This document shows, in pieces, positions 39,870 to 64,000 of a DNA stretch of 64,000 nt. The DNA is taken from assembly GCF_044324875.1 (NCBI RefSeq), contig NZ_CP172185.1, one strand, 5' to 3'. Below the pieces are notes generated by a model. The model was not told where the DNA came from, searched no databases, and saw only the letters and a list, made by a program, of their open reading frames with translations. Numbering within the stretch: the first letter of the stretch is position 1; the number at the start of each line of letters is the position of its first letter. The position numbers and the translations under genes are program-made. The stretch is from Escherichia coli. Its GTDB lineage: Bacteria > Pseudomonadota > Gammaproteobacteria > Enterobacterales > Enterobacteriaceae.

Positions 39870-39934
39870 CTTGTGAGCAGTAACTTAAAAATAACAATCT
39901 AATATCAACTTGTTAAAAAACAAGGAAGGCTAAT

Positions 39935-44081: not shown

Positions 44082-44157
44082 GCCCGGATAGCTCAGTCGG
44101 TAGAGCAGGGGATTGAAAATCCCCGTGTCCTTGGTTCGATTCCGAGTCCGGGCACCA
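44082..44157 (+). tRNA. pheU: tRNA-Phe (GAA)
   Basis: Exact 76-nt GCCCGGATAGCTCAGTCGGTAGAGCAGGGGATTGAAAATCCCCGTGTCCTTGGTTCGATTCCGAGTCCGGGCACCA. Confidence 0.97.
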
Positions 44158-44167
44158 AATTCATATA

Positions 44168-44196
44168 AACGGACCTCCACGGAGGTCCGTTTTTCG
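44168..44196 (+). terminator. pheU terminator hairpin
   Basis: CGGACCTCC-AC-GGAGGTCCG inverted repeat followed by TTTTTCGTTT directly after the tRNA. Confidence 0.7.
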
Positions 44197-44354
44197 TTTC
44201 AGGACGCCACGATTTAAGCGTCCTGCCGCCAAATCAATTCTACCGAACTCAACCAGACTCCCCCCACATCAACCCCATTGTGTGGGTATAATTGCGGGTA
44301 TACCCCAGTTCGACAGAATTTGTACCCTCTTTAACGCATTCAGAAGGCTGAACT

Positions 44355-45617
44355 ATGGCACTGACTGACGCAAAAATCCGGGCTGCAAAGCACACTGACA
44401 AGGCTTATAAACTCACTGACGGGGCTGGCATGTTCCTGCTGGTACATCCTAATGGTTCCCGTTACTGGCGTCTCCGTTATCGCATTCTGGGTAAGGAGAA
44501 AACTCTGGCACTTGGTGTATACCCGGAGGTTTCTCTCTCCGAAGCTCGTACAAAACGGGATGAGGCCCGAAAACTGATTTCGGAGGGGATTGACCCTTGC
44601 GAACAGAAAAGAGCTAAAAAAGTAGTCCCTGATTTACAACTCTCTTTTGAACATATTGCACGACGCTGGCATGCCAGTAATAAACAATGGGCACAATCAC
44701 ACAGCGATAAGGTACTCAAAAGCCTCGAAACACACGTTTTCCCCTTTATCGGCAACCGGAACATCACAACACTCAATACCCCGGACCTGCTTATCCCTGT
44801 TCGTGCTGCAGAAGCTAAACAAATTTATGAAATCGCCAGTCGTCTGCAGCAAAGAATATCTGCTGTAATGCGTTATGCCGTACAGTCTGGCATCATCAGA
44901 TATAATCCTGCTCTGGATATGGCTGGCGCATTGACCTCTGTAAAACGACAGCATCGCCCCGCTCTTGATCTTTCACGTCTGCCTGAACTTCTGTCGCGTA
45001 TTAACAGTTATAAAGGTCAGCCTGTCACCCGGCTTGCTGTTATGCTGAATTTACTGGTTTTTATTCGCTCCAGTGAACTCAGATATGCCCGCTGGGCTGA
45101 AATTGATATTGACAATTCAATGTGGACTATTCCAGCCGAACGCAAACCTCTGCCAGGGGTAAAATTCTCACACCGGGGCTCCAAGATGCGAACACCACAT
45201 CTTGTGCCACTCAGCAAACAGGCTGTAGCCATACTGACAGAACTTCAGACATGGGCTGGTGAAAATGGTCTGATCTTTACGGGAGCACATGACCCGCGTA
45301 AACCAATCAGTGAAAATACCGTAAATAAGGCCCTCAGAGTGATGGGGTATGACACAACCAAGGAAGTCTGTGGCCATGGATTCCGGGCGATGGCGTGCAG
45401 TGCATTGATTGAATCAGGTTTGTGGTCCCGCGATGCTGTGGAACGTCAGATGAGCCATCAGGAGCGTAATGGTGTACGTGCTGCGTATATCCATAAAGCA
45501 GAACATCTGGAAGAACGTCGACTGATGCTACAGTGGTGGGCAGATTTTCTGGATGCGAACAGAGATAAGGGTATCAGCCCGTTTGAATATGCAAAGATTA
45601 ACAATCCATTAAAATAG
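44355..45617 (+). CDS. P4-type tyrosine integrase
   Basis: 420-aa ORF; N-terminus MALTDAKIRAAKHTDKAYKLTDGAGMFLLVHPNGSRYWRLRYR (phage-integrase arm domain); C-terminus with HGFRAMACS and RAAYIH (R..H..R..Y catalytic signature); sits about 200 bp from the tRNA. Confidence 0.9.
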   Translation: MALTDAKIRAAKHTDKAYKLTDGAGMFLLVHPNGSRYWRLRYRILGKEKTLALGVYPEVSLSEARTKRDEARKLISEGIDPCEQKRAKKVVPDLQLSFEHIARRWHASNKQWAQSHSDKVLKSLETHVFPFIGNRNITTLNTPDLLIPVRAAEAKQIYEIASRLQQRISAVMRYAVQSGIIRYNPALDMAGALTSVKRQHRPALDLSRLPELLSRINSYKGQPVTRLAVMLNLLVFIRSSELRYARWAEIDIDNSMWTIPAERKPLPGVKFSHRGSKMRTPHLVPLSKQAVAILTELQTWAGENGLIFTGAHDPRKPISENTVNKALRVMGYDTTKEVCGHGFRAMACSALIESGLWSRDAVERQMSHQERNGVRAAYIHKAEHLEERRLMLQWWADFLDANRDKGISPFEYAKINNPLK

Positions 45618-46068: not shown

Positions 46069-49000
46069 ATGGATGAAAATGCTTTAGGGTTTGCCTCATA
46101 CTGGCGCAACTCGCTTGCGGACGCTGAGTCAGGAAAGGGCAGTTTTGAACGGAAAGACGCCAAAAATTTCACTCACTGGCATGGGATAGCGGCGGGACGT
46201 CTTGACGAAGCGATTGTCAGTAAATTTTTTAAGGGAGAAAAAGACGATGTCGAAACGGTCGATGTCATCTTGCGCCCAAAAGTTTATTTCCGGTTACTGC
46301 AGCATGGTAAGGACCGTTCTGCAGGTGCGCCTGATATTGTTACCCCGATAGTGACGCCAGCCTTGCTAAGCCGTGAGGGTTTTTTATATCCGACGCCAGC
46401 GACCTCCATTCCCAGAGACCTGCTTGAACCTTTGCCAAAAGGAGCATTTTCGATTGGTGAGATTGGGCAGTATGACAAATACAAGACGACCCATACCACG
46501 TTCTCTATCAACTTTGATGACAGCGTTGATAAGACTGCCGAAACGGATGAAGAACGGGAAGAACGATATGCAGCCTTGCAGCAGGAGTGGCGTCAATATC
46601 TGGATGATTCAGAGAGGCTGCTGAAGAACGTTGCCGGCGACTGGATTAAAAATCCTGAGCAATATGAACTCGCTGAGCACGGTTATATTGTTAAAACGGC
46701 GCAATCTGGCGGTGCCAGTTTCCATATCCTTTCTCTTTATGATCACCTGCTTGTTTGCAATAAGGATGTGCCGCTCTTCAATCGATTCGCCTCGCGAGAG
46801 GTTCATGCTGCAGAGTCTTTGCTGGCCCCTGGAGCAAAATTCAGCGACAGGCTTGGACACTCCGGAGATAAGTTTCCGCTGGCAAAGGCTCAGCGCGATG
46901 CCTTAAGCCATTTTCTGGATGCTAAACATGGCGATATCCTTGCTGTTAATGGCCCTCCTGGAACCGGAAAAACCACGCTGGTGCTTTCTATCATCGCCAC
47001 GCAGTGGGCCAGAGCGGCTCTCGAAAAATCTGAGCCTCCGGTTATTATCGCGACTTCAACGAATAACCAGGCTGTAACGAACATTATTGAGGCATTCGGG
47101 AAAGACTTTTCGCAAGGTTCAGGTGCGATGGCCGGGCGATGGTTGCCAGAGCTGAAAAGCTTCGGCGCTTATTTTCCCTCAGGCAGCCGTAAAGCTGAAG
47201 CAGCCAAAAAATATCAAACTGAAGATTTCTTCAACCAGGTTGAGTCAAAAGAGTATGTAGAAGATGCACTGCTGTTTTATCTGGAAAAGGCTAAGGCAGC
47301 CTTTCCTGAAAAAGAGTGTTCATCCCCTGAAAAGGTCATTGAACTCCTGCATGGTCAGTTGGCAGCAAAATCCGAGCAACTGATAAGACTGAACGCAACA
47401 TGGCAAAAGTTAAGCCAGATTCGGGCTGCGCGTGAGCTTATTGCTAATGATATTGAGCAATATCTCAATAATTTAAATAAATTACTTTCCGGACAAGAAC
47501 AAAAAATCACTCTACTGAAGAGTGCTAAAACGGAATGGAAAAAATATCGCGCCGGTGAATCACTGATCTATTCATTATTTTCCTGGCTTCCGGCGGTTCG
47601 CAGTAAGCGACAGTACCAAATACAGCTGTTTCTCGAAGATAAATTAGGTGCGCTGATTGCAGGAAATCAATGGTCTGATCCTGAAACTATCGAACGTAAT
47701 ATTGATGGGCTGCTCAATTCCGCTGAGCGCGAGCAAACAACATACCGGCAGCAGATTGACTCCGCCCATGAAATCATTCTTAAAGAACAGCAGGCGGTTC
47801 AGGAGTGGCAGAGACTGGCTCTTGATTTAGGGTATGAGGGCGACGAGGAACTGAGCTTCTCACAGGCCGATGAACTGGCTGATACGCAGATTCGCTTCCC
47901 TGCATTTTTACTGACGACTCACTACTGGGAAGGTCGTTGGCTGATGGATATGGCCAGCATTGATGATCTGCAGGAAGAGAAGAAGAAAAAAGGCGCTAAA
48001 GGGGTAACCGCCCGTTGGCAACGTCGAATGAAACTCACTCCATGTGTGGTGATGACATGCTATATGCTGCCCGGCAATATGCAGATAAGTGAGCACAAAG
48101 GACAGCGTAAATTCGAGAAAAGTTATTTGTATGATTTTGCCGATTTACTCATTGTCGATGAAGCCGGGCAGGTGCTTCCTGAAGTGGCTGCTGCCTCGTT
48201 TGCATTAGCTAAGAAGGCATTAGTGATTGGCGATACGGAGCAGATCCCGCCAATATGGAGTATTGCTCCTGCGATTGATATCGGTAACATGCTGGCGGAA
48301 AAAATTCTGTCTGGCAGTACGCAAGAAGAGATTACCGAGAAATATACGGCAATCGCAGACCTTGGTAAAAGTGCCGCATCTGGCAGCGTTATGAAAATAG
48401 CGCAGTTTGCTTCGCGCTATCAATATGATCCCGAACTGGCTCGTGGTATGTACCTATATGAACACCGCCGGTGCTACGACAATATTATTGGATACTGTAA
48501 TACGCTCTGCTATCACGGTAAGTTGTTGCCTAAAAGAGGGCGTGAAGAGAGCAATTTAATGCCCGCAATGGGGTATCTCCATATTGATGGTAAAGGAGAG
48601 CTGGCAAGTAGTGGAAGTCGATATAATTTGCTTGAGGCTGAAACGATAGCGGTCTGGTTGGCAGAGAACCAGCAAAATATTGAAGCGCATTACGGTAAAT
48701 CGCTTCATGAAGTTGTCGGTATTGTGACGCCTTTTAGCGCTCAGGTATCCACTATCAAACAGGTGCTGGGCAAACAAGGTATCAGTACAGGCACGAATGA
48801 AAAGTCGCTCACAGTGGGCACCGTGCACTCTCTTCAGGGAGCGGAAAGAGCGATTGTGATATTCTCGCCAGTCTATTCAAAACATGAAGACGGCGGGTTT
48901 ATTGATAGCGATAACAGCATGCTGAATGTTGCAGTCTCCCGTGCGAAGGACAGTTTTCTGGTCTTCGGCGATATGGACCTGTTTGAGGTCCAGCCAGCCT

Positions 49001-49584
49001 CATCGCCACGGGGATTACTGGCAAAATACCTCTTTGAGTCAGAGAAGAATGCGCTCTCTTTTGATTATAAAGAGCGTAAGGATTTAAAAACCGCCGGGAC
49101 CAAAATCTACACACTTCATGGTGTGGAGCAACATGATAATTTCCTGAATCAGACATTTGAAAATACCAGTAAACACATCACGATAGTTTCTCCATGGCTG
49201 ACCTGGCAAAGGCTGGAGCAAACCGGTTTTCTTGATTCCATGATTGCGGCGTGTTCACGTGGAATTAACGTCACGATAGTCACTGACAGAAGCTACAACA
49301 CTGAACATAATGATTTTGAGAAGCGAAAAGAGAAGCAGCAGAACTTTAAAGCGGCGCTGGAGAAACTGAATGCGCTGGGTATTGCTACAAAGCTGGTAAA
49401 CCGTGTTCATAGCAAAATTGTTATTGGTGATGATGGTTTGCTGTGCGTGGGATCGTTCAACTGGTTTAGTGCGACACGGGAAGCGCGATATGAACGATAC
49501 GATACATCAATGGTTTATTGCGGTGATAACCTGAAGGGTGAGATTGAGGCTATTTATAATAGTCTTGAGAGGCGGCAGGTTTAG
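46069..49584 (+). CDS. Upf1-like SF1 helicase fused to a C-terminal PLD-family (single HKD) nuclease domain; candidate anti-phage defence protein with Mokosh type II-like architecture
   Basis: 1171-aa ORF. Walker [10 protein letters not shown] (aa 295-303, nt 46951-46977); Walker [10 protein letters not shown] (nt 48145-48171); helicase motifs [19 protein letters not shown] and [16 protein letters not shown] (nt 48814-48972); C-terminal HSKIVIGDD...GSFNW = H-x-K-x4-D...GSxN (nt 49408-49464). Located beside the island integrase. Confidence 0.8.
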
Positions 49585-51373: not shown

Positions 51374-52114
51374 TCAGAAGTTATAAGTCACACCAAGCAT
51401 GATGTCATGACTTTTAACATCAACTTCTGACTTATATTTATCGCCCCACTCGTCCTTGTAACTCACACTGCTGTCACCTGCATCAAGATAGCGATAGCTG
51501 AGGTCCAGAGCGATATCCGGGGTTACGTCATAGCGGACACCCGCGCCAAGGTTCCATGCGAAGTTGTCAGCAGAGCCTGAACGTGACAACGATTCGCGAC
51601 CACTGCTTCCGTACTCATAATCCCAGGTACTGATACCGGTTGTTTTCTGGTGAATTCTGGCGTAGCCAATCCCTGCAGATATCCAAGGTGTGAATGCGCT
51701 GTCATTCCGGAAGTCATAGTACGCATTCAGCATTAGTGTGTTGACTGACACCTCATTCTTCAGGTCATCACGCCAGTAACCACCTGACCAACTGTCTTTA
51801 TCTACGTTATACTTCGAATCAGCTTTTCCACGAGCGTAAAACTCCAGTTCTGTACGAACCGGAATACTGAACTGCGGATAAAAATCATAACCAGCCGCGA
51901 TACCACCACTGAATACCGTATCATGGTCATCGCCGCCTTTATACTTTGACGTTTCTTCCTCATCTCCTGACAGGAAACGCTGGTCTGAAAGTGACACCAC
52001 AGAGGTACCGGCTTTACCGGTCAGATAAAAACCGCTTTTACCTTCCTCAGCACCTGCATTTGCTGCAAATACACAGGCTGCGGCCACCACTGAAACAGCA
52101 AAAACCTTTTTCAT
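51374..52114 (-). CDS. Outer-membrane beta-barrel protein (Opa/Ail/OmpA-like)
   Basis: 246-aa ORF with signal peptide MKKVFAVSVVAAACVFAANAGA, alternating amphipathic strands rich in Y/G/D, and C-terminal ...GVTYNF (terminal Phe typical of OM beta-barrels). Confidence 0.7.
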   Translation of the reverse strand: MKKVFAVSVVAAACVFAANAGAEEGKSGFYLTGKAGTSVVSLSDQRFLSGDEEETSKYKGGDDHDTVFSGGIAAGYDFYPQFSIPVRTELEFYARGKADSKYNVDKDSWSGGYWRDDLKNEVSVNTLMLNAYYDFRNDSAFTPWISAGIGYARIHQKTTGISTWDYEYGSSGRESLSRSGSADNFAWNLGAGVRYDVTPDIALDLSYRYLDAGDSSVSYKDEWGDKYKSEVDVKSHDIMLGVTYNF

Positions 52115-52190
52115 TTCAATTATCTCCGTTATTGCTCCGTTGCTGCAAGCAGTACTCAGTGCATTTTAAAACCCGCCATGCTATAGCCTC

Positions 52191-52235
52191 AATCGAATAA
52201 AATCGATCGAATCGATCGATGATATCGATCGTCAT
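52191..52235. repeat. ATCGA(T)-rich low-complexity tract with overlapping ATCGAT palindromes
   Basis: AATCGAATAAAATCGATCGAATCGATCGATGATATCGATCG about 80 bp upstream of the OMP start codon. Confidence 0.6.
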
Positions 52236-52601
52236 TAACCAGAAATTTTTATCGTATTCAGTCAGCACAGACACAACAAATGCATGCCATGCAGGCAGCC
52301 ATGCCCCGTCGCGACAGATGGTAGCAGTGGGCTGGCGAAGAGCAGAATTAATAAAATTTGTTTATTCTGTCAGGAGATAAGGTGTCACCTGTTCATGAAC
52401 ACAATTAAGGAAGAGACATACATGAGCTGACTGGCAGTCCAGAGTGCATGCGGTTACAAGCCGGAAAGGTGAACCGGTATAACCAGTGAGCAGAGTTTGT
52501 GAAGGGGGGATATAAAAAAGCCCACTGCATGGCTGCGGGTAAAGAGTCAGTTATTTCCGGCGTTTTTCAAGGTAGTTGTCGCCTGATGTAATAAAATTAC
52601 G

Positions 52602-52960
52602 TTATGCCGCTTCTTTTTCTGGATTCAGATAAACTGCCTGAATGAGTTCCCAGTCACGCAACTGTTTGCTCCAGCGCTCAGGATGACGCTTGCGAGCTTC
52701 GCGATAAACTTTTTTTCTGGCTTCCAGTATTTGTGCATCAATTCCGCGATGGCGTTCATCCGGAGTAACATACTTAATACCGCTGTGCTTGTGTTCCAGG
52801 TTGTACCATTACGTGAACTTGCTTAACCAACTTCTGGCTTCATCTATGGTTCGAAAACCATTCTCCGGCCACCATGAACAATACTTAATCGTCCGGAAGA
52901 GCGATTCGGAATAAAGAAGTGTTACTGGCAGTTCTTTCATCGCATCAGTGAAAACCAGCA
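52602..52960 (-). pseudogene. Transposase C-terminal remnant (DDE integrase-core type, IS3-like), interrupted by a stop codon
   Basis: Minus-strand translation ...SLFRTIKY...WPENGFRTIDEARSWLSKFT*WYNLEHKHSGIKYVTPDERHRGIDAQILEARKKVYREARKRHPERWS...; no N-terminal part present. Confidence 0.5.
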
Positions 52961-52969
52961 GGGCACTGC

Positions 52970-53391
52970 TCACCAGAGCAACACAGGAAAGTGAACCCGA
53001 ACAAAAGTTCCTGTACCATTTTCTCCCAGCAGACGTGAGGCTTGTTCCAGTGACGCTGGTATACGTCCCAGCCGGACATCAAGTGCGCCGATGGCTATTG
53101 CCTGAAATCGCATCGTACAGCAAATCACCAACAGGACACCGACAGACATTAAAGGTAACCCCCTGTAATCCAGTAGTTCCGCCAGCCAGCGGTCATTTAG
53201 GGAGTCAGAAAACCAATCGCCAGAATCGTGCCCGGAAAGGCATAACCCAGCGACGCCCCTCTCATCACACCGCGCCTGAACAGTGGCATAGCGTTGAGGA
53301 ATTCCGGGCATTCCAGACTACGAGCAGACTGACAAAAATTACGACAAAGCGTTGAAGGAAGCCAGCGCGCGGACTGACAGGACTTTACCAT
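52970..53391 (-). pseudogene. ABC-transporter permease remnant (frameshifted fragments)
   Basis: Two overlapping minus-strand ORFs with permease-type motifs (...AMPLFRRGVMRGASLGYAFPGTILAIGFL...; ...LEQASRLLGENGTGTFVRVHFPVLLW); no intact gene. Confidence 0.4.
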
Positions 53392-53440
53392 AAAAACACA
53401 GGCTAACCGCGCCTGCGTTTTTAATGACGGATAAACAGAA

Positions 53441-55420
53441 TCAGGTGCCGATTATGCCGCCGTCGGCTTTTACGATAACGACAGTTGAGGAGCGCGGACG
53501 ACCAGCCTTATCGCCGTCAGGCCAGCTTGATACTGCCGTCGGATGCTGCGGATCGCTAAGCCCTTCGCTTGGCTCGCCAGGGTGCTGGATGTTAATAAAC
53601 AGCGTCCGGTTATCCGGAGTGAACGCGATGCCGGTGATTTCGCAGCCGCGCGGGCCGGTCAGGAAGCGGCGGAACTCATTGGTACCGGGGATCGTCGCCA
53701 CCATCTGGTTGTTGCCCATGCCTTTGTAATCTTTACTATTGATGGTTGATGACGACACGTCGGTCTGGATCCATAGCACGCCGCGGTGATCGAAGCTCAG
53801 GCCATCGGCGCTGCCGAATTCCGCCCCCTTCATGCTGCCTTTGGTTTCCGGTTTGTCCGTATCGGTGCGACCGCCCATCACAAGAATATCCCAGGCAAAC
53901 TGCAGCGCGGTCGGGTCACCGTTATGCTCCAACCAGTGAATGATGTGGCCGTAAACGTTTTTGGCGCGCGGGTTGGCCGCATCCACTGGCGCTTTTCCTT
54001 CCTTACCGCGATCGCTGTTGTTGGTGAGCGTGCAGTAAACGCTGCCGGCGTGATATGGATCGACCGCAATCCACTCCGGGCGGTCCATTTTAGTGGCCCC
54101 CACGGCGTCTGCCGCCAGACGGGTTTTAATCAACAGGTCGCCCTGGTTTTCAAACCCTTTACTGGCGTCGAGCCCATTTTGTCCGAACACCAGCGGTAGC
54201 CACTCGCCTTTGCCGTCGTCGTTAAATTTCGCCACGTACAGAGTGCCTTTTTCCAGCAGGTGCATGTTGGCTTTGCGATCCTGCGGGTTGAATTTTCCTT
54301 CCGAGACAAATTTATATATGTATTCGAATTTCTGGTCATCGCCCATATAGACCACAACGCGGTTATCCGGGGCAATTGTCACCGCTGCGCCTTCGTGTTT
54401 GATGCGACCAAGCGCGGTGTGCTTGCGCGGCACTGAATGCGGATCGTATGGATCGATTTCCACCACCCAGCCGAAGCGGTTCGGCTCGTTCGGCGTGGCG
54501 TCGACGCTGAACCTTTTATCCACTTCGTTCCAGCGGTAAGAGTCGTCGCTCCCGCTGATACCGTAACGTTTTTCCAGCGGGTTCATCTCTGCTTTTTTTA
54601 CGAAAATATCGGACCAGTTCTCTTCACACGTCAGATAGGTGCCCCACGGCGTAAATCCGTTGGCACAGTTCTGCATGGTGCCGAGAATGATTTCGCCTTT
54701 CGGATCGTCAACTGTTTGCATCAGTGGGTTATGCAGCGCCGGACCGGTGATTTTCATCGGCGTGTTAACGGTGATGCGGCGTGCGAAAGATGACGGGCGC
54801 ACCACTTCCCAGCCCAGGGGCACTTTTTTTACTTCAATGACCGACACGCCCATCGCGTTCTGGCCTTTAAGAGCTTTATCGGCGCTCCAGTTGGCATCGC
54901 CATCTTTAAACAGTAGACCGTTATCGATGTATTCATGGTTTATGGCAAGCAGGCCGTGATCGGAGCTGTTCCCGCCCTGCGGCAGGCTAAACCACGCCAT
55001 GCCGTCGTGGTGCATCCCGGCCTGCGCCGCCTGTTCTTCCGTGGTGTTGCTACCGTCGGTTTTAAAAACCGGCAGATTTCCGGCAATCCCGGTGGCGTCG
55101 CCCCATTTGTAGAAGGGCTTCGCGATGTATCCTTCCGGCACGATAACGGTATCTTCCGTGGAAACCGGCAGGCTGGTGAAACCGAGCGTCGTCGCTTTGC
55201 CGAGGTTACCGCTTGCTTTGGAGACCACTTTCGCCAGCGCGTTTTCCTGTTTCAGCAGAAATGGGAACGCTGCCGCGGCACCGGCGACCGTGCCGGCCTG
55301 TAACAGACGGCGGCGTGACAAATAAACTTCCGCCACCTGCGAAAACGCGCGGTTATCGCTCGGGTTACTGATTTCTTCACTATGCTCACGTTTGAATAAA
55401 GTTTTTAACGGTCTGCCCAT
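53441..55420 (-). CDS. PhoX-family phosphatase (DUF839) with Tat-type signal peptide
   Basis: 659-aa ORF; N-terminus ...SRRRLLQAGTVAGAAAAFPFL (twin-arginine-like); body matches the beta-propeller PhoX/DUF839 pattern. Confidence 0.75.
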   Translation of the reverse strand: MGRPLKTLFKREHSEEISNPSDNRAFSQVAEVYLSRRRLLQAGTVAGAAAAFPFLLKQENALAKVVSKASGNLGKATTLGFTSLPVSTEDTVIVPEGYIAKPFYKWGDATGIAGNLPVFKTDGSNTTEEQAAQAGMHHDGMAWFSLPQGGNSSDHGLLAINHEYIDNGLLFKDGDANWSADKALKGQNAMGVSVIEVKKVPLGWEVVRPSSFARRITVNTPMKITGPALHNPLMQTVDDPKGEIILGTMQNCANGFTPWGTYLTCEENWSDIFVKKAEMNPLEKRYGISGSDDSYRWNEVDKRFSVDATPNEPNRFGWVVEIDPYDPHSVPRKHTALGRIKHEGAAVTIAPDNRVVVYMGDDQKFEYIYKFVSEGKFNPQDRKANMHLLEKGTLYVAKFNDDGKGEWLPLVFGQNGLDASKGFENQGDLLIKTRLAADAVGATKMDRPEWIAVDPYHAGSVYCTLTNNSDRGKEGKAPVDAANPRAKNVYGHIIHWLEHNGDPTALQFAWDILVMGGRTDTDKPETKGSMKGAEFGSADGLSFDHRGVLWIQTDVSSSTINSKDYKGMGNNQMVATIPGTNEFRRFLTGPRGCEITGIAFTPDNRTLFINIQHPGEPSEGLSDPQHPTAVSSWPDGDKAGRPRSSTVVIVKADGGIIGT

Positions 55421-55842
55421 TGCGGTTTCCTTTCAAAAAATCGATTTCAAGGGGAATCATTTTTATGCACGTGAGTCTACGGAAAGATTGTTACGGAAAT
55501 ATAACAATTGTCATAAAAAACCGGCGATAAAATCATCTATGGTCGGGACGCGGTTTCAGGTATGATGTGAGGCTAGAATTCTGAACGCTCTCTTTTGTTG
55601 AGCATATATGGACGTCCCGGGTGAGGCAAGTACTGGTTCGATGCGGTTTGCGACCATATATCCGGCGTCGTTAGTAGGTTCAATGACCTGCGCCATGATG
55701 TTATCCGGGCCCTGTTTCCTAATCACTACACCGGTATTTGATTACCCAGGTCAACTTCAGACTGTTACAGGGGCGGTAGCCGTTATCTCATCAGTGAATG
55801 TAAACTCAGTTAAAAATATTTTCTATAACTTACTGTTTTTCT

Positions 55843-56026
55843 TTAATTCATCACAACGGCCTTCTGCATATTAAAATCAATACTATCGCTCAAAACACGC
55901 CAGATGATTCTTGTCAGCTTATTCGCCAGCGCACCAGTGGTTTTCAGGAACCCTCGACGGGCTTCCATCCTTTGCAGACAAATACTCAGACTGTCAGTGA
56001 GCTTTTTCACACAGCGCATTACAGAC
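55843..56026 (-). pseudogene. Transposase-like C-terminal fragment (family uncertain), cut by the IS911-like end
   Basis: Short minus-strand ORF ...TGALANKLTRIIWRVLSDSIDFNMQ... abutting the IS911-like terminal repeat at 56027. Confidence 0.3.
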
Positions 56027-56440
56027 TGAAATGGCACACTGAATTTGGTCACCTGAACAGAGGTGATATGCTCACCTCAGAACAAGACTGGTGCCCTAAT
56101 GAAAAAAAGAAATTTTAGCGCAGAGTTTAAACGCTAATCCGCCCAACTGGTTGTTGACCAGAACTATACGGTGGCAGATGCCGCCAAAGCTATGGATATC
56201 GGCCTTTCCACAATGACAAGATGGGTCAAACAACTGCGTGATGAGCGTCAGGGCAAAACACTAAAAGCCTCTCCGATGACACCAGAACAAATCGAAATAC
56301 GTGAGCTGAGGAAAAAGCTACAACGCATTGAAATGGAGAATGAAATATTAAAAAGGCTACTGCACTCTTGATGTCAGCCTCCCTGAACAGTTCTCTATAA
56401 TAGGGAAACTCAGGACACGTTATCCTTTGGTCACTCTCTG
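56027..56440 (+). mobile_element. IS911-like (IS3 family) left-end fragment with inactivated orfA
   Basis: Terminal repeat TGAAATGGCACACTGAATTTGGTCACCTGAACAG at 56027; orfA from ATG 56099 reads MKKRNFSAEFKR* (in-frame TAA), then ...[29 protein letters not shown]...IEMENEILK; right boundary approximate. Confidence 0.7.
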
Positions 56441-57310
56441 TGTAGTGGATCGGTAATTCAGGACACCTCATTTTCACTGTTAATGTTAAAAAGTGAAAAT
56501 GAGGTGATGCATGATCAAAACTCGTCGGACTAAACGTACCTTTTCCCCGGAGTTCAAGCTTGAAGCTATCGAACAGGTGGTTAAATACCAGCGTGATGTC
56601 AGAGAAGTCGCGCTGGCACTCGAGCTCAACCCTGACCATTTGCGTAAATAGATACGGTTGTATAAGCAGGAACTTCAGGGTATTGAGCCCGCTGGTAATG
56701 CTATTACTCCTGAACAACGCTAAATTAAGCAGCTTAAAGCGCAGATAAAGCGCCCTGAGATGGAAAAAGAAATACTAAAGCAGGCTGCCGTGCTGATGAG
56801 CGAAATCCCCGGGGAAACTGTCGCGCTAATCACACAGCTGAAAGCAAAGTGGCCAGTGCGGGTTCTTTGTCATTTATTCGGTATTCACCGTAGCATTTAT
56901 TACGCGCAGGTGAAGCGTCCTGTTAATGTGCAAAGAATTGAATTACGAAGTCGGGTGAGGGCTGTCCATGCTCTCAGTCGTGGCGCAGTCGGTAGCCGGG
57001 CAATCAGTCAGATGTTGCGCCATAGTGGCGTTGATGCAGGTCGGTGGCTGGCACGACGACTGATGCGGGAATGCGGGCTGACAAGTCGACAGCCAGTTAA
57101 ACATCACTACCGGGTAAACGAAGACAAAAGTCCGCCATTGCCAAATTTACTGAACCGGCAATTTCACCCCGCCGCACCAAACCGCGTCTGGTGCGGCAAC
57201 ATCAGTTTTATTCGCCTGCAGGACAAATGGTGTTATCTCGCACTCGTTGTTGATTTATATTCACGGCGGATTATCGGTTCAGCCCTCTCATTAACCGCTG
57301 ATGCTGAGTT
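56441..57310 (+). mobile_element. Second IS3-family element fragment (orfA and 5' part of orfB), truncated by the IS66 insertion
   Basis: orfA from ATG 56511 (MIKTRRTKRTFSPEFKLEAIEQVVKYQRDVREVALALELNPDHLRK*), orfB-like ORF 56760-57314 (...RVWCGNISFIRLQDKWCYLALVVDLYSRRIIG...) ending at the IS66 end; left boundary approximate. Confidence 0.6.
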
Positions 57311-57347
57311 GTAAGCGTACAGCGAGGGCCGTATTGACGGGGATGTG

Positions 57348-58886
57348 TTATTCAGCTGGCAGTGCTATGCGCCACGGAAGCAGTTCGCTGACCCGGTTGA
57401 CCGGCCAGTCTGCTATGACGCCAAGCACATGGCGAAGGTAGCTTTCTGGATCCACGTCATTCAGTTTGCACGTCCCTATCAGGCTGTACAGTAGCGCTCC
57501 CCGCTCACCACCATGGCCAGAGCCGAAGAACAGGAAGTTTTTACGACCCAGACTTACCGCCCGCAGGGCATTTTCAGCGATGTTGTTGTCGATTTCCACC
57601 CAGCCATCGTTCGCATAGTACGTCAGTGCCGGCCACTGGTTAAGTGCGTACGCGAACGCCTTCGCCAACTCTGAGTGTCGCGACAGGGTCTTCATCTTTT
57701 CACGCAACCAGCTTTCCAGGGATTTCAACAGCGGTTTCGTTTTTCGCTGACGTTCAGCAAGCCGCTGCTCTGCCGGCATTCCCCTTATATCCGCCTCTAT
57801 GGCGTACAACTGACCGATCTGCTCCAGGGCTTCTTCCGTCAGTGCTGACGGGATGCGGACGTGCACATCGTGGATCTTTCGGCGGGCATGAGCCCAGCAG
57901 GCAGCTTCCGTTATCCCACCATTGCGATACAGCTCGTTGAACCCGGCGTACGCATCCGCTTGCAGCACACCGCTGAAGCAAGCAAGATGAGTCTGCGGAT
58001 GGATGCCTTTTCTGTCCGGGCTGTAAGCGAACCACACTGCAGGTGCCAACGCTGACCCGGCATTGCGGTCATCACGAACATACGCCCACAACCGCCCGGT
58101 CTTCGTCTTCTTATTACCCGGCATCAGTACCTGGACCGGGGTATCATCGGCATGGAGTTTGCCGTCAGTCATGACATAGCCATGAAGCGCCTCTTCCAGC
58201 GGAGACAGCAGCCGGCAGCATGCATCCACCCAGCCCGACAGCAGTGAACGGCTCAGCTCCACACCTTGCCGGCCGTATATTTCTGACTGGCGATACAGCG
58301 GGGTGTGCTCTGCATACTTCGAGGTCAGCACGCGGGCCAGCAGCCCCGGTCCGGCGATACCCCGCTCGATGGGCCGCGAAGGTGCAGGTGCCTGCACGAT
58401 GGCATCGCACTGAGTACAGGCATGTTTTTCCCGTACCGTCCGGATAACCCGGAAGGCGCTACGCATCAACTCCAGCTGTTCGGCGGTATCCTCGCCCAGA
58501 TAGCTCAGTGAACCGCCGCAGTTCGGGCAGCACGGCGCCGCAGGCAACAGTCGCTTTTCGTCACGGGGTAGTGATTCAGGGAACGGCTTACGGATGCGGG
58601 TCTGACGCAACGGACGCTGTACTGCCGGGTCATACACCCTACCAGTCAGCGTATCGCTCTCTTTCTGAAGCCGGTTCAGATCGGCTTCCATTTGTGCGAT
58701 ACGGCGGGAGACTTTTTCGGAACGACTGCCGAAGTTCATCCGGCGGAGTTTATCCAGCTGCGCCTGCAGATGGTCTATTTCGCGCTCCCGGTTGCTCAGC
58801 TTTTCCTGCAGGGCGTGGATCAGCGCTTCCTGTTCGGCCAGGCGCTGTTTCAGCAGGAAGATGTCGTCAGAAGAGATGTCGTTCAT
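57348..58886 (-). CDS. IS66-family transposase TnpC
   Basis: 512-aa ORF with N-terminal leucine-zipper/coiled-coil ([24 protein letters not shown]), Cys-rich zinc-finger region (CPNCGG...CTQCD) and DDE core. Confidence 0.88.
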
Positions 58887-61872: not shown

Positions 61873-62424
61873 ATGAAACGCATTCTGACCCGTGGCCTGG
61901 CGCTGCTGATGCTGATGCTCGCCGGCTGCAGCATCGAGGTCACCGAGTACCGGCAGCAGCAGCCCGCCCTCGACATCTTCCACTATTTTCAGGGTCGAAC
62001 CGAGGCGTGGGGGATGGTGCAGGATCGCCGCGGTAAACAGCTGCGCCGCTTCCATGTAGCGATCGATGGCGACGTCGTCGGCGACACCCTGACGCTCCAT
62101 GAGCGCTTTGTCTATGACGATGGCGAGAAACAGCAGCGGGTGTGGCGCATTCGCCGCACCGGCGATAACCATTATCAGGGCACCGCCGGGGATATCGAAG
62201 GCGTGGCCAGCGGCCAGGCGGCAGGCAATGCCTTTCACTGGCGCTACAGCATGAACGTCGAGGCCAGCGGCAGCCGGTGGCTGCTGCACTTTGACGACTG
62301 GATGTTCCTGCAGGACGGCAGCCATTTGTTTAACAAAACCGAGATGAAGAAATTCGGCATTACGGTGGCCACCGTGACCCTTTTCTTTACCCGAACCACA
62401 GCAGAAGAGAGGACAGCGCCATGA
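61873..62424 (+). CDS. Putative lipoprotein
   Basis: 183-aa ORF with signal peptide and lipobox MKRILTRGLALLMLMLAGCS; stop overlaps the next gene's start (ATGA); high-GC codon usage. Confidence 0.65.
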   Translation: MKRILTRGLALLMLMLAGCSIEVTEYRQQQPALDIFHYFQGRTEAWGMVQDRRGKQLRRFHVAIDGDVVGDTLTLHERFVYDDGEKQQRVWRIRRTGDNHYQGTAGDIEGVASGQAAGNAFHWRYSMNVEASGSRWLLHFDDWMFLQDGSHLFNKTEMKKFGITVATVTLFFTRTTAEERTAP

Positions 62425-63380
62425 ACACGCAACCTGTCATTGGGATCAGCGGATGTTTAACCGGCTCAGCCGTGCGATTCGACGGCGGGCATAAGCGTAT
62501 GGGCTTTGTGATGGATGAGCTCGCGCAGTGGGTGGCGTTTAAGCCCGTCTGCCCGGAGATGGCGATCGGCCTGCCCGTTCCCCGCCCGGCGCTCCGGCTG
62601 GTGCAGACCCCGGTCGGGGAGATCCGCATGCGCTTCAGCCACGCCCCGCACGAGGATGTGACGGAGAAGATGGCCGATTTCGCCAACGCCCATCTGGCAA
62701 CCCTGGGCGAGCTGTCGGGCTTTATCGTCTGCGCCAAATCGCCGATCTGCGGGATGGAGCGCGTGCGGCTGTATGATGAAAAAGGCAATCGCGGGCGTAA
62801 GGAAGGCGTGGGGCTGTTTACCGGCGCCCTGATGGCGCGCTACCCGTGGCTTCCGGTGGAAGAGGATGGCCGGCTGCACGATCCGCTGCTGCGGGAGAAT
62901 TTTGTCGAGCGCGTCTTCGCCCTGCATGAACTCAACGCCCTGCGCGCCCGCGGCCTGACCCGCCACGGCCTGCTGGCCTTTCACAGCCGCTACAAGCTGC
63001 AGCTGCTGGCTCACCACCAGGCGGGCTACCGCGAGATCGGCCCCTTCGTCGCCTCGCTGCATGAATGGGAGGATCTGGAGGCTTTCTTCGAGGTCTATCG
63101 CGAAAAGCTGATGGCGATCCTCAAGCGGCCCGCCTCTCGGAAAAACCACACCAACGTGCTGATGCATATTCAGGGTTATTTCCGCGACCAGCTGAACAGC
63201 CGCCAGCGCGGCGAGCTGCGGGAGGTGATCCTCAACTATCGCGCCGGGCTGCTGCCGATCCTCGCGCCGCTGACGCTGCTTAAGCACTATCTGGCCGAGT
63301 ATCCGGATCGCTACCTGCAGGCGCAGAACTATTTTGACCCCTACCCGCAGGATCTTGCCCTGCGCCTGACGGTGAACTGA
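62421..63380 (+). CDS. YbgA-like protein (DUF523 plus DUF1722-type)
   Basis: 319-aa ORF MNTQPVIGISGCLTGSAVRFDGGHKRMGFVMDELAQWVAFKPVCPEMAIGLP...; high GC and Leu/Arg/Ala-rich composition. Confidence 0.6.
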   Translation: MNTQPVIGISGCLTGSAVRFDGGHKRMGFVMDELAQWVAFKPVCPEMAIGLPVPRPALRLVQTPVGEIRMRFSHAPHEDVTEKMADFANAHLATLGELSGFIVCAKSPICGMERVRLYDEKGNRGRKEGVGLFTGALMARYPWLPVEEDGRLHDPLLRENFVERVFALHELNALRARGLTRHGLLAFHSRYKLQLLAHHQAGYREIGPFVASLHEWEDLEAFFEVYREKLMAILKRPASRKNHTNVLMHIQGYFRDQLNSRQRGELREVILNYRAGLLPILAPLTLLKHYLAEYPDRYLQAQNYFDPYPQDLALRLTVN

Positions 63381-63395
63381 GGGAACCTGGGCCAG

Positions 63396-63616
63396 CTGCC
63401 CGGCGGCGCTGCGCTTGCGCGGGCCTGGGAGGGGATCCCGCAGGCCTCCTCAGGAACGTAGGCCGGATAAGGCATTTATGCCGCCATCCGGCACAACCAC
63501 AGGTATGGAGCTTGAAGTGTCCTGCCCGGCGGCGCTGCGCCTGCCGGGCCTGGGGGGTATCCCGCAGGCCTCCTCAGAAACGTAGGCCGGATAAGGCATG
63601 TATGCCGCCATCCGGC
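63396..63616. repeat. Two tandem ~97-bp REP/BIME-type palindromic repeat units
   Basis: Units 63396-63492 and 63522-63616, about 90% identical, each containing TAGGCCGGATAAGGCAT(T/G)TATGCCGCCATCCGGCA. Confidence 0.8.
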
Positions 63617-63692
63617 ATAAATGGAGCGCACCAGTCGTAGCCCGGCTAAGCGTAGCGCCAGCCGGGAACGCTCCTTCGACAACGCTATCGCA

Positions 63693-64000
63693 TCAGAACC
63701 ACGCCTCAAACATCCCGCCGACGTTCAGCGAATCCAGCTGCTGGTCTTTGGTGCCGTTGACCTTAGCGGTATGCTCGTTGTCCACCTGACCGCCGGTCAC
63801 GTAGAAGCGCAGCATCGGACGGAACTCCGGCCCCATGCCGATGGCGATGTTCTGCGACAGCGTCAGCTTCCAGCCGTGGTTATCCCCGCCCTGGTCGTAG
63901 TCCACGCGCTGGTAGCCCGCTTCCAGCCAGGTGGAGTGCACGTCGTTCCAGAAGTACATCGGCCGCACGATGGCACCGTAGTTTTTGCGGTTGTCGGTAT
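63693..64000 (-). CDS. LamB-family sugar porin, C-terminal part (gene runs off the window end)
   Basis: Minus-strand ORF ending ...DSLNVGGMFEAWF*, resembling maltoporin-type C-termini; frame open to the window edge. Confidence 0.55.
   Translation of the reverse strand, partial: TDNRKNYGAIVRPMYFWNDVHSTWLEAGYQRVDYDQGGDNHGWKLTLSQNIAIGMGPEFRPMLRFYVTGGQVDNEHTAKVNGTKDQQLDSLNVGGMFEAWF

Follow-up and report, generated by a model that had tools for sequence, protein, structure and literature searches.

PhoX enzymes are phosphomonoesterases equipped with two Fe3+ ions, three Ca2+ ions and a bridging oxo group, and they use thiolate-ligated Fe3+ (PMC4223295). Members of the family are exported by the twin-arginine translocation (Tat) pathway, probably to allow the insertion of iron in the cytoplasm, and PhoX has been described as a phosphate-scavenging enzyme produced under phosphate deficiency (PMC4223295). 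Of the regulators relevant here, PhoB has a DNA-binding domain that is highly conserved across gammaproteobacteria (PMC10294691), and its paralogue ArcA acts mainly as a repressor and recognises repeats of the consensus TGTTA with an 11-bp spacing, the natural icdA site being composed of TGTTA, TGTAA and TGTCA (PMC4173790). In the searchable literature, we found no experimental work on PhoX of Escherichia coli or of other Enterobacteriaceae; the BEN2908 genome paper lists a paper on Vibrio cholerae PhoX among its references. Here we describe a phoX gene, and the promoter in front of it, on a genomic island in a 64-kb stretch of E. coli DNA (the whole of which is hereafter called the window). 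The best explanation for this locus, to which we assign a probability of about 0.6, is that a transferred PhoX module encodes a Tat-exported enzyme and would be activated by phosphorylated PhoB under phosphate limitation.

An intact gene for a PhoX-type phosphatase

The gene is an intact open reading frame (ORF) of 659 amino acids with an ATG start, preceded by a ribosome-binding sequence.

53441..55420, minus strand: phoX coding sequence (ORF list, Pfam, PDB entry 3zwu, dN/dS)
55428..55432, minus strand: Shine-Dalgarno sequence AAGGA, 7 nt before the ATG (read from the sequence; AGGAA core conserved in orthologs)

The protein matched the Pfam family PhoX (PF05787, formerly DUF839) with an E-value of 6e-166; the score was 554 bits, the cutoff being 24, and residues 80-615 covered positions 2-515 of the 515-position profile. 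Its best match in PDB was PhoX of Pseudomonas fluorescens (3zwu, E = 9e-168); the alignment starts at residue 70, extends to the C-terminus and has 569 aligned positions, 50.1% of them identical. A preliminary description of this DNA, made from the sequence alone, had recognised a phosphatase family in the PhoX/DUF839 pattern of the 659-residue ORF, and the two matches bear this out. It had also envisaged that the protein might belong to a different DUF839 subgroup with a non-phosphatase function; this proved not to be so, as the best match is a characterised PhoX. The cysteine of the QNCANG motif at chain position 179 of 3zwu, which we take to be the thiolate ligand of Fe3+, aligned with C252 of the island PhoX, and C252 was invariant across 12 orthologs in the protein alignment. 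The PhoX of P. fluorescens Pf0-1 (3zwu, 4a9v and 4alf) resembles the island protein in the Pfam family, the QNCANG cysteine and an N-terminal twin-arginine signal, whereas the signal region of the island PhoX is longer (~63 residues, including a conserved extension of 34 amino acids).

The protein is identical to RefSeq WP_029400569.1 in strain EC21Z-147, with 2 synonymous nucleotide differences between the genes, and RefSeq already labels the gene 'PhoX family protein'. With a dN/dS value of 0.06 against the ortholog at its native locus on a Cronobacter-like contig (L082), the gene is under purifying selection. Judged by homology, the protein groups with characterised phosphatases and not with a divergent DUF839 subgroup, and the intact island gene encodes a PhoX-type (iron/calcium) alkaline phosphatase of predicted activity.

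Predicted export by the Tat pathway

The N-terminus had been described as twin-arginine-like, a view strengthened by both profile and ortholog comparisons.

55232..55420, minus strand: predicted Tat signal peptide, residues 1-63 (TIGR01409, ortholog conservation, inspection)

The NCBIfam twin-arginine model TIGR01409 passed its cutoff (17.8 against 16.7 bits), and the Pfam model TAT_signal remained below its own (16.7 against 22.7 bits). Among 12 orthologs from Enterobacteriaceae and Neisseriaceae, S35, R36 and R37 were invariant, and A61 and A63 were conserved in at least 90%. The signal begins with a conserved extension of 34 residues and continues with S35-R-R-R-L-L-Q41, which opens the twin-arginine-containing stretch SRRRLLQAGTVAGAAAAF (residues 35-52), a hydrophobic h-region AGTVAGAAAAFPFLL (42-56), the basic K57 and the AxA motif A61-L62-A63. 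A motif of the S/T-R-R-x-F-L-K type, an h-region and an AxA motif are thus all present; export is predicted, with cleavage placed before K64 by inspection only. The annotated start codon is supported, because the 34 residues ahead of the twin arginines are conserved and the orthologs begin with ATG or GTG at the aligned codon.

Residues 1-34 (window positions 55319-55420) are conserved from Enterobacteriaceae to Neisseriaceae with the consensus MxRPLKxLFKxEHSDEISNxSxNPxFSxV. A conserved n-region of 34 residues before the twin arginines is unusual for a signal peptide and lengthens the predicted signal to ~63 residues; it might serve for the docking of a chaperone that acts in Tat proofreading or cofactor insertion.

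By homology with described PhoX enzymes, the product would fold and take up iron in the cytoplasm, acquiring the oxo-bridged Fe3+/Ca2+ cofactor, and would then be exported via its 63-residue twin-arginine signal. In the periplasm, it would free phosphate from organic monoesters as a zinc-independent alternative to PhoA.

A conserved direct repeat in place of the -35 hexamer

The promoter of phoX consists of two parts.

55489..55506, minus strand: bipartite direct repeat TGTTAT-ATTTC-CGTAAC-A with an 11-bp period, in the -35 region (PhoB and ArcA matrices, conservation)
55474..55479, minus strand: -10 hexamer TAGACT, 9 nt downstream of the 18-mer (T28, A29 and T33 near-invariant in 40 promoters)

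We gathered 80 loci of PhoX relatives. For 38 enterobacterial orthologs, 250 bp of upstream sequence was aligned with that of the window. These regions were unalignable save for a single block with the consensus TGTTATAAAAnTGTAAYAAA, followed after a 3-nt gap by TTCT-TAnACT-G, and the information per column leapt from less than 0.4 to 1.2-2.0 bits exactly at the first T of the block. The block comprises two 11-bp units (TGTTATAAAAn and TGTAAYAAAnn) with 3' A-tracts and then the -10 hexamer. Its counterpart in the window is TGTTATATTTCCGTAACA (55506..55489, read on the gene strand), in which the 11-bp-period direct repeat TGTTATATTTC CGTAACA replaces the -35; inspection of the phoX promoter found no acceptable -35 hexamer. 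The aligned box was present in 39 of 40 enterobacterial phoX promoters, the window included.

PhoB-activated promoters of E. coli are built in a similar manner. The phoA promoter of MG1655 reads TGTCATAAAGTTGTCACG, 9 nt and TATAGT, and its pstS promoter TTACATATAACTGTCACC, 9 nt and TATTTT (both read from the sequence), the two hexamers being the -10 elements. The likeness to pstS, phoA, phoE and phnC lies in a coding-strand repeat of 11-bp period that serves as the -35 and is placed, in the register of the 18-mer, 9 nt before the -10. The phoX promoter differs from these in that its distal repeat is TGTTA and not TGTCA or TGTAA, that it has one box only and that binding is predicted. As far as sequence can tell, it has the architecture of a PhoB-activated promoter, with a coding-strand box for the -35 at the fixed distance of 9 nt from the -10.

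Other descriptions of the element were tried and set aside. A palindromic operator (TGTTAtA-N4-TGTAACA) does not match the conservation, which is asymmetric: the 3' A-tract is conserved, without a mirrored T-tract before position 1. The consensus sites of PhoP, CpxR, OmpR, RstA, CusR/HprR and GntR were poorer matches or had the wrong spacing. The classical phnC box CTGTTAGTCAC failed as a precedent for a TGTTA half-site, since the 11-bp register in MG1655 phases AGTCAC, and not TGTTAG, with the site defined by chromatin immunoprecipitation (ChIP).

Evidence for control by PhoB

We scored the element with a PhoB matrix derived from an E. coli PhoB ChIP-seq study (PMC10294691), whose Table 1 gives 59 site sequences. 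Its score of 11.25 bits is the sixth highest among the 127,966 positions on the two strands of the window. The real PhoB sites, scored leave-one-out, ranged from 4.9 to 23.8 bits with a median of 14.5 (phoE 10.6, phnC 13.1), which places the window element at about the 19th percentile. Roughly 0.007 matches of at least 11.25 bits are expected in the ~150 gene-strand positions upstream of the ATG. Among the enterobacterial orthologs, the aligned element was the top coding-strand match in 38 of 39, scoring 9.7-15.2 bits (median 14.2) at 50-68 nt from the start codon, and the matrix found no other Pho-box candidate upstream of phoX in the window or in the orthologs. Both repeats end in a pyrimidine, as do PhoB sites and unlike most ArcA sites. 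A proximal repeat that starts with C, as here, is found in 9 of the 59 real PhoB sites, phoE and phnC among them.

Members of the PhoX subfamily at 60-70% identity were found in Pasteurellaceae, Wohlfahrtiimonas, Ignatzschineria, Neisseriaceae, Chromobacteriaceae and Moraxella. At nearly all of the 40 distant loci scanned, a canonical TGTCAT-N5-TGTCAT box scoring 14-22 bits stands 50-100 nt ahead of the start, in many cases with a TAnnnT hexamer following it after exactly 9 nt. In the Ursidibacter promoter, for instance, TGTCATCAAACTGTCACA is followed by TTCCCTTGA and this by TAAACT. When random 200-nt segments were drawn from each locus, the share that equalled the box score was 9% or less at 39 of the 40 distant loci and below 4% at 38 of these. 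Because canonical boxes occupy the same position in these distant orthologs, the enterobacterial element is the positional homologue of an ordinary Pho box.

Several observations weigh against control by PhoB. The fourth position of the distal repeat is T in every ortholog. Of the 59 PhoB sites, 42 have C there, 17 have A and none has T, so that the distal repeat departs from the C or A expected as the fourth base of a TGTCA tract. The window element has 5 mismatches to the 18-bp consensus and is missed by a search that allows up to 3. In the window, a T-to-C change in the proximal repeat costs 2.3 bits on the PhoB matrix, and 2.6 bits on an ArcA matrix that we derived from 115 known boxes (Table S3 of Park et al. 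2013). On that same matrix, the enterobacterial phoX elements score 11-20 bits with a median of 16.7, compared with a median of 15.9 for the training sites. In the searchable literature, we found no experimental data on the regulation of enterobacterial phoX, and the enzyme activity, the cofactor and the Tat dependence are each drawn from homology.

With these points counted, we consider PhoB control of the phoX promoter likely. Transcription would start at a promoter without a -35, where the direct repeat stands in 9 nt upstream of TAGACT. Activation by phosphorylated PhoB under phosphate limitation is the most likely mechanism, because the promoter shows the geometry of PhoB-activated promoters; we infer binding at 55489-55506 from the site, its conservation and its geometry. 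The preliminary description had raised PhoB control as a hypothesis. The hypothesis itself gains from the conserved bipartite site at 55506-55489, while the half box on which it had been based fails (see below) and the bipartite site is atypical and fits ArcA equally well.

ArcA as a possible competing or additional regulator

The Klebsiella phoX element reached 20.0 bits on the ArcA matrix, the 93rd percentile of real ArcA boxes, and the window allele 12.2 bits, rank 8 in the window and the 16th percentile of known boxes. The canonical pstS and phoA boxes scored about -1 bits. The element therefore qualifies as an ArcA box by its TGTTA-like repeats, their 11-bp spacing and a score within the known range. 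Compared column by column, only position 4 favours ArcA, while positions 6, 15 and 17 (pyrimidine, A and pyrimidine) favour PhoB; without position 4, the phoX element amounts to a Pho box of roughly 20 bits.

Three accounts of the element (PhoB only, PhoB plus ArcA, ArcA only) cannot be separated by computation, and we would rank them in that order. PhoB alone is placed first because a promoter without a -35 needs an activator, because canonical Pho boxes stand at the homologous position and because there is no other Pho-box candidate.

Under dual control, PhoB~P would activate phoX at phosphate limitation and ArcA~P would compete for the same 18 bp under low oxygen or with reduced quinones and switch the promoter off, so that expression would need phosphate starvation and aerobic conditions together. 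The arrangement TGTTA-N6-TGTAA fits ArcA direct repeats, the icdA repeats being alike (PMC4173790). The median of the orthologs and the rank of the Klebsiella element on the ArcA matrix agree with this account, as do the low scores of the pstS and phoA boxes, and a T4 that favours ArcA beside columns that favour PhoB is the mixture expected from selection by both regulators. Nevertheless, A/T-rich direct repeats easily score high on the ArcA matrix, and the low percentile of the window allele among ArcA boxes speaks against it. An experimental link between ArcA and phoX was not found, the supplements of an ArcA regulon study of Klebsiella, Citrobacter and Serratia containing no mention of phoX. 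Moreover, Pasteurellaceae keep canonical TGTCAT boxes even though they carry ArcA. We regard dual control as a possible but distinctly less probable account than PhoB alone. If it is the case, it is tempting to speculate that T4 turned an ancestral Pho box in Enterobacteriaceae into a site for two paralogous regulators, with PhoB as the activator and ArcA as a competing repressor. Production of the iron-dependent, Tat-exported phosphatase would then be confined to aerobically respiring cells short of phosphate, and the E. coli island would have imported a composite switch ready-made, the majority allele having since been weakened by a T-to-C single-nucleotide polymorphism (SNP).

Alternatively, the element might be an operator for ArcA (or another OmpR-family regulator) only, which would leave phoX of Enterobacteriaceae and of the island outside PhoB control. 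The T4 seen in none of the 59 PhoB sites and an ArcA score at or above the median of real ArcA boxes are what this account would predict. Set against them, inspection shows a promoter that lacks a usable -35 and so depends on an activator exactly here, whereas ArcA is mainly a repressor; 17 of 18 columns fit PhoB, with ~20 bits once column 4 is left out; in distant orthologs a canonical Pho box takes the corresponding place; and the upstream region offers no other Pho-box candidate. The description of PhoX as an enzyme for scavenging under phosphate deficiency (PMC4223295) also fits poorly with a gene free of PhoB. We therefore consider ArcA alone improbable. In comparison with ArcA boxes such as that of icdA, the phoX element shares the repeat sequences, the 11-bp spacing and comparable matrix scores, but its repeats end in a pyrimidine where ArcA prefers A, it sits at an activator position in a promoter without a -35, and the homologous positions in distant phoX orthologs are not ArcA-like.

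The strongest ArcA-matrix match in the window lies elsewhere: TTGTTATTTTTAAGTTAC (39880-39897, minus strand, 17.6 bits), 38 nt upstream of the dcuA start codon (39935) and on the opposite strand.

The proposed half Pho box upstream of the element

The preliminary description had based its hypothesis on a half Pho box next to the element.

55508..55517, plus strand: half Pho box TTGTCATAAA, inverted copy of the distal half site (string search)

The string is present there, agrees with CTGTCATAWA at 9 of 10 bases and lies 88-97 nt upstream of the ATG, and these are the points in favour of its being a PhoB contact that confers phosphate control. The remaining evidence runs the other way. The string sits on the plus strand, antiparallel to the minus-strand phoX, and lacks a partner half site; the best 18-mer containing it reaches only 4.2 bits with the PhoB matrix and ranks 179th in the window. 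Strings within 1 mismatch of CTGTCATAWA occur 4 times in the 64-kb window against 5.04 expected, and 75 of 100 dinucleotide shuffles reach 4. The half box was absent from every aligned ortholog, and it arises from a derived, E. coli-specific SNP: BEN2908 and SLK172 read TTGTTAT at this site, and L082 is different again. BEN2908 has a perfect palindrome here, ATAACAATTGTTAT, the distal half site simply being repeated in inverted orientation. PhoB-activated promoters also have a strict spacing between box and core promoter (PMC10294691), which further counts against the half box. A role for TTGTCATAAA is thus very improbable; it is a chance string outside the functional unit and should be discarded.

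The preliminary description had found no full bipartite box. This is correct for the 18-bp consensus at up to 3 mismatches, which matches nowhere in the window, though a degenerate bipartite element adjoins the half site on the other strand. Searches with consensus strings at such a threshold overlook conserved functional boxes.

Promoter alleles in E. coli and the question of silent cargo

Three alleles of the phoX promoter were found in E. coli.

Window allele: half-box site (minus strand) ATGACAA, proximal repeat CCGTAAC; majority
SLK172 allele: half-box site (minus strand) ATAACAA, proximal repeat CCGTAAC
BEN2908 allele: half-box site (minus strand) ATAACAA, proximal repeat CTGTAAC

The majority class, into which the SLK172-type allele also falls, contains the 74 of 98 genomes that match an upstream query of 140 bp at 99% identity or more. 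The C of the window (TGTAAC to CGTAAC) is derived, because the native relative and a plasmid copy have CTGTAAC, and it sets the window allele apart from the chromosomal phoX of Enterobacteriaceae, which read TGTAAC. Gao and Stock (PMC4447250) showed that induction sets in later at boxes of lower affinity and that affinity is reduced when T is replaced by C in the TGTCA tract. The window allele is probably weaker and not dead, with weaker binding predicted than for the BEN2908 allele or the donor lineage.

A weakened box invites the view that the gene, though intact, is effectively silent cargo, i.e., a recent import on a decaying island, behind a SNP-weakened promoter and of little use beside PhoA. 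The weaker box is the majority allele, debris of insertion sequences (ISs) and pseudogenes flanks phoX on both sides, carriers make up only 1.8% of complete genomes, and scraps of phoX are scattered over other E. coli chromosomes and plasmids. However, the ORF, the Shine-Dalgarno sequence, the promoter and the terminator are all intact, no frameshift was found in the seven copies with annotation that we inspected (chromosomes and one plasmid), and the module has spread to several locations, which suggests retention. On balance, we think it unlikely that phoX is silent, if somewhat less so than that ArcA alone controls it.

A compact module on an island at pheU

The phoX gene lies on an island anchored at a tRNA gene, and the module, its terminator and the adjoining pseudogene are delimited as follows.

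44082..45617, plus strand: tRNA-Phe (pheU) and adjacent P4-type tyrosine integrase, island anchor (ARAGORN, Pfam, RefSeq context)
53346..55520, minus strand: transferred phoX module with promoter, gene and terminator (blastn against L082, alignments)
53392..53422, minus strand: intrinsic terminator hairpin with U-tract, 3' of the phoX stop (fold of -19.2 kcal/mol, z = -3.5; terminator scan; conserved in L082)
52887..53345, minus strand: 'iron ABC transporter permease' pseudogene scrap adjoining the module, non-functional context (RefSeq annotation in L001, the EC21Z-147 record)

The window runs through aspA-dcuA-cutA-dsbD-yjdC to tRNA-Phe (44082-44157, ARAGORN) and an integrase with the Pfam domains Arm-DNA-bind_3, Phage_int_M and Phage_integrase (44355-45617), and continues with a 1171-residue helicase/PLD protein, a phosphoethanolamine transferase, an outer-membrane beta-barrel protein, the permease scrap, phoX and then IS3 and IS66 debris. 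RefSeq strain EC21Z-147 has an identical island layout. The full phoX gene, at 99% identity or more, was found in 98 of 5,426 complete E. coli genomes (1.8%), many of them from chickens and humans. Insertion next to a tRNA gene, a neighbouring integrase and a patchy distribution within the species are the marks of a tRNA-associated island. A second copy of the tRNA-Phe 3' end was not found within 3 mismatches anywhere in the window, and the island may extend past its end.

The closest protein cluster, at 96%, is labelled Cronobacter universalis, followed by Franconibacter (81%) and Enterobacter and Klebsiella (76-79%). The Cronobacter-like contig L082 carries a native phoX with iol genes and a major facilitator superfamily (MFS) transporter upstream and a met-type ATP-binding cassette (ABC) transporter downstream. 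A blastn comparison gave 92.06% nucleotide identity over 2,180 bases, and the homology stops at both ends, 55520 and 53346. From this confinement it follows that E. coli holds a module of 2.2 kb, composed of 100 bp of promoter, the gene and 95 bp with the terminator. Chromosomal phoX genes of Enterobacteriaceae (L082, Franconibacter, Siccibacter, Enterobacter, Klebsiella, Buttiauxella and Atlantibacter) encode proteins with 73-96% identity to the island PhoX and resemble it in the N-terminus, the promoter box and the -10, but they sit in native contexts, such as that after the iol genes and MFS transporter in L082, whereas the island keeps the 2.2-kb module only. The gene is thus a compact, horizontally acquired module among IS debris in the pheU island. 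The preliminary description had placed it on an island and had called its family often horizontally acquired; the island location and the acquisition are borne out by the tRNA-Phe and integrase, the homology with L082 and the distribution among genomes.

Further phoX copies were noticed in E. coli. In strain PK8261 (L090, 4561-9001) a chromosomal copy lies near iha in a region resembling an integrative and conjugative element (ICE), and second copies of this kind occur in some genomes. It is followed by a decayed 'iron ABC transporter' operon of permease, ATPase and binding protein, whereas native loci have no adjacent transporter of that kind. We considered such a transporter as a native partner of phoX, supplying iron for the cofactor, and rejected it: a tblastn search of 81 phoX loci with the fuller PK8261 copy gave generic ATPase matches only. 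Of such an operon, the window retains just the permease scrap at 52887-53345, whose ORFs had no Pfam match. Plasmid pJNE25-005_2 (L085, 3268-7683) carries a phoX with 6% nucleotide divergence from that of the window, flanked by IS3 copies and accompanied by a gene for an 'esterase-like activity of phytase family protein', and an IS3 end removes the distal half of its promoter box at the equivalent of window position 55504. The two plasmid genes could be a mobile phosphate-scavenging pair. A scrap of phoX of ~112-140 bp (window 54447-54558, inside phoX; L087, 2473-2613), 91-93% identical, occurs in ~390 other E. coli records, among them BL21-type chromosomes and many plasmids, where it is labelled an incomplete 'alkaline phosphatase' amid IS30 and toxin-antitoxin debris. 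Evidently, phoX DNA has repeatedly passed through the mobile-element junkyards of E. coli.

Elsewhere on the island, upstream of the phoX module, are a 69-residue ORF (55843-56052, minus strand) that resembles the C-terminus of an IS110-type transposase by eye and has no Pfam match, and IS3-family fragments with an ISEc8 (IS66-like) element (56147-58886). The 1171-residue protein (46069-49584) consists of an AAA_11/AAA_12 superfamily-1 helicase and, at its C-terminus, a PLD-type nuclease domain, an architecture reminiscent of anti-phage defence proteins. The last part of the window (62000-64000) has a G+C content of 63%, high for E. coli, and a gene with DUF1722 and 2-thiouracil desulfurase domains. 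An Rfam scan of 52000-57000 returned zero matches.

Biological meaning

The island carries an ordinary PhoX gene, and its only mildly unusual feature is a site that is equally PhoB-like and ArcA-like. A single 18-bp element that fits both matrices is a test case for how OmpR-family regulators share or partition their sites. E. coli K-12 depends on the zinc enzyme PhoA, and about 2% of sequenced E. coli, many of them of poultry or human extraintestinal origin, add to it an iron/calcium PhoX with what appears to be its own phosphate-responsive promoter. The mechanism is not new; for its carriers, the island phoX would be a modest accessory fitness trait, allowing phosphate scavenging under zinc limitation.

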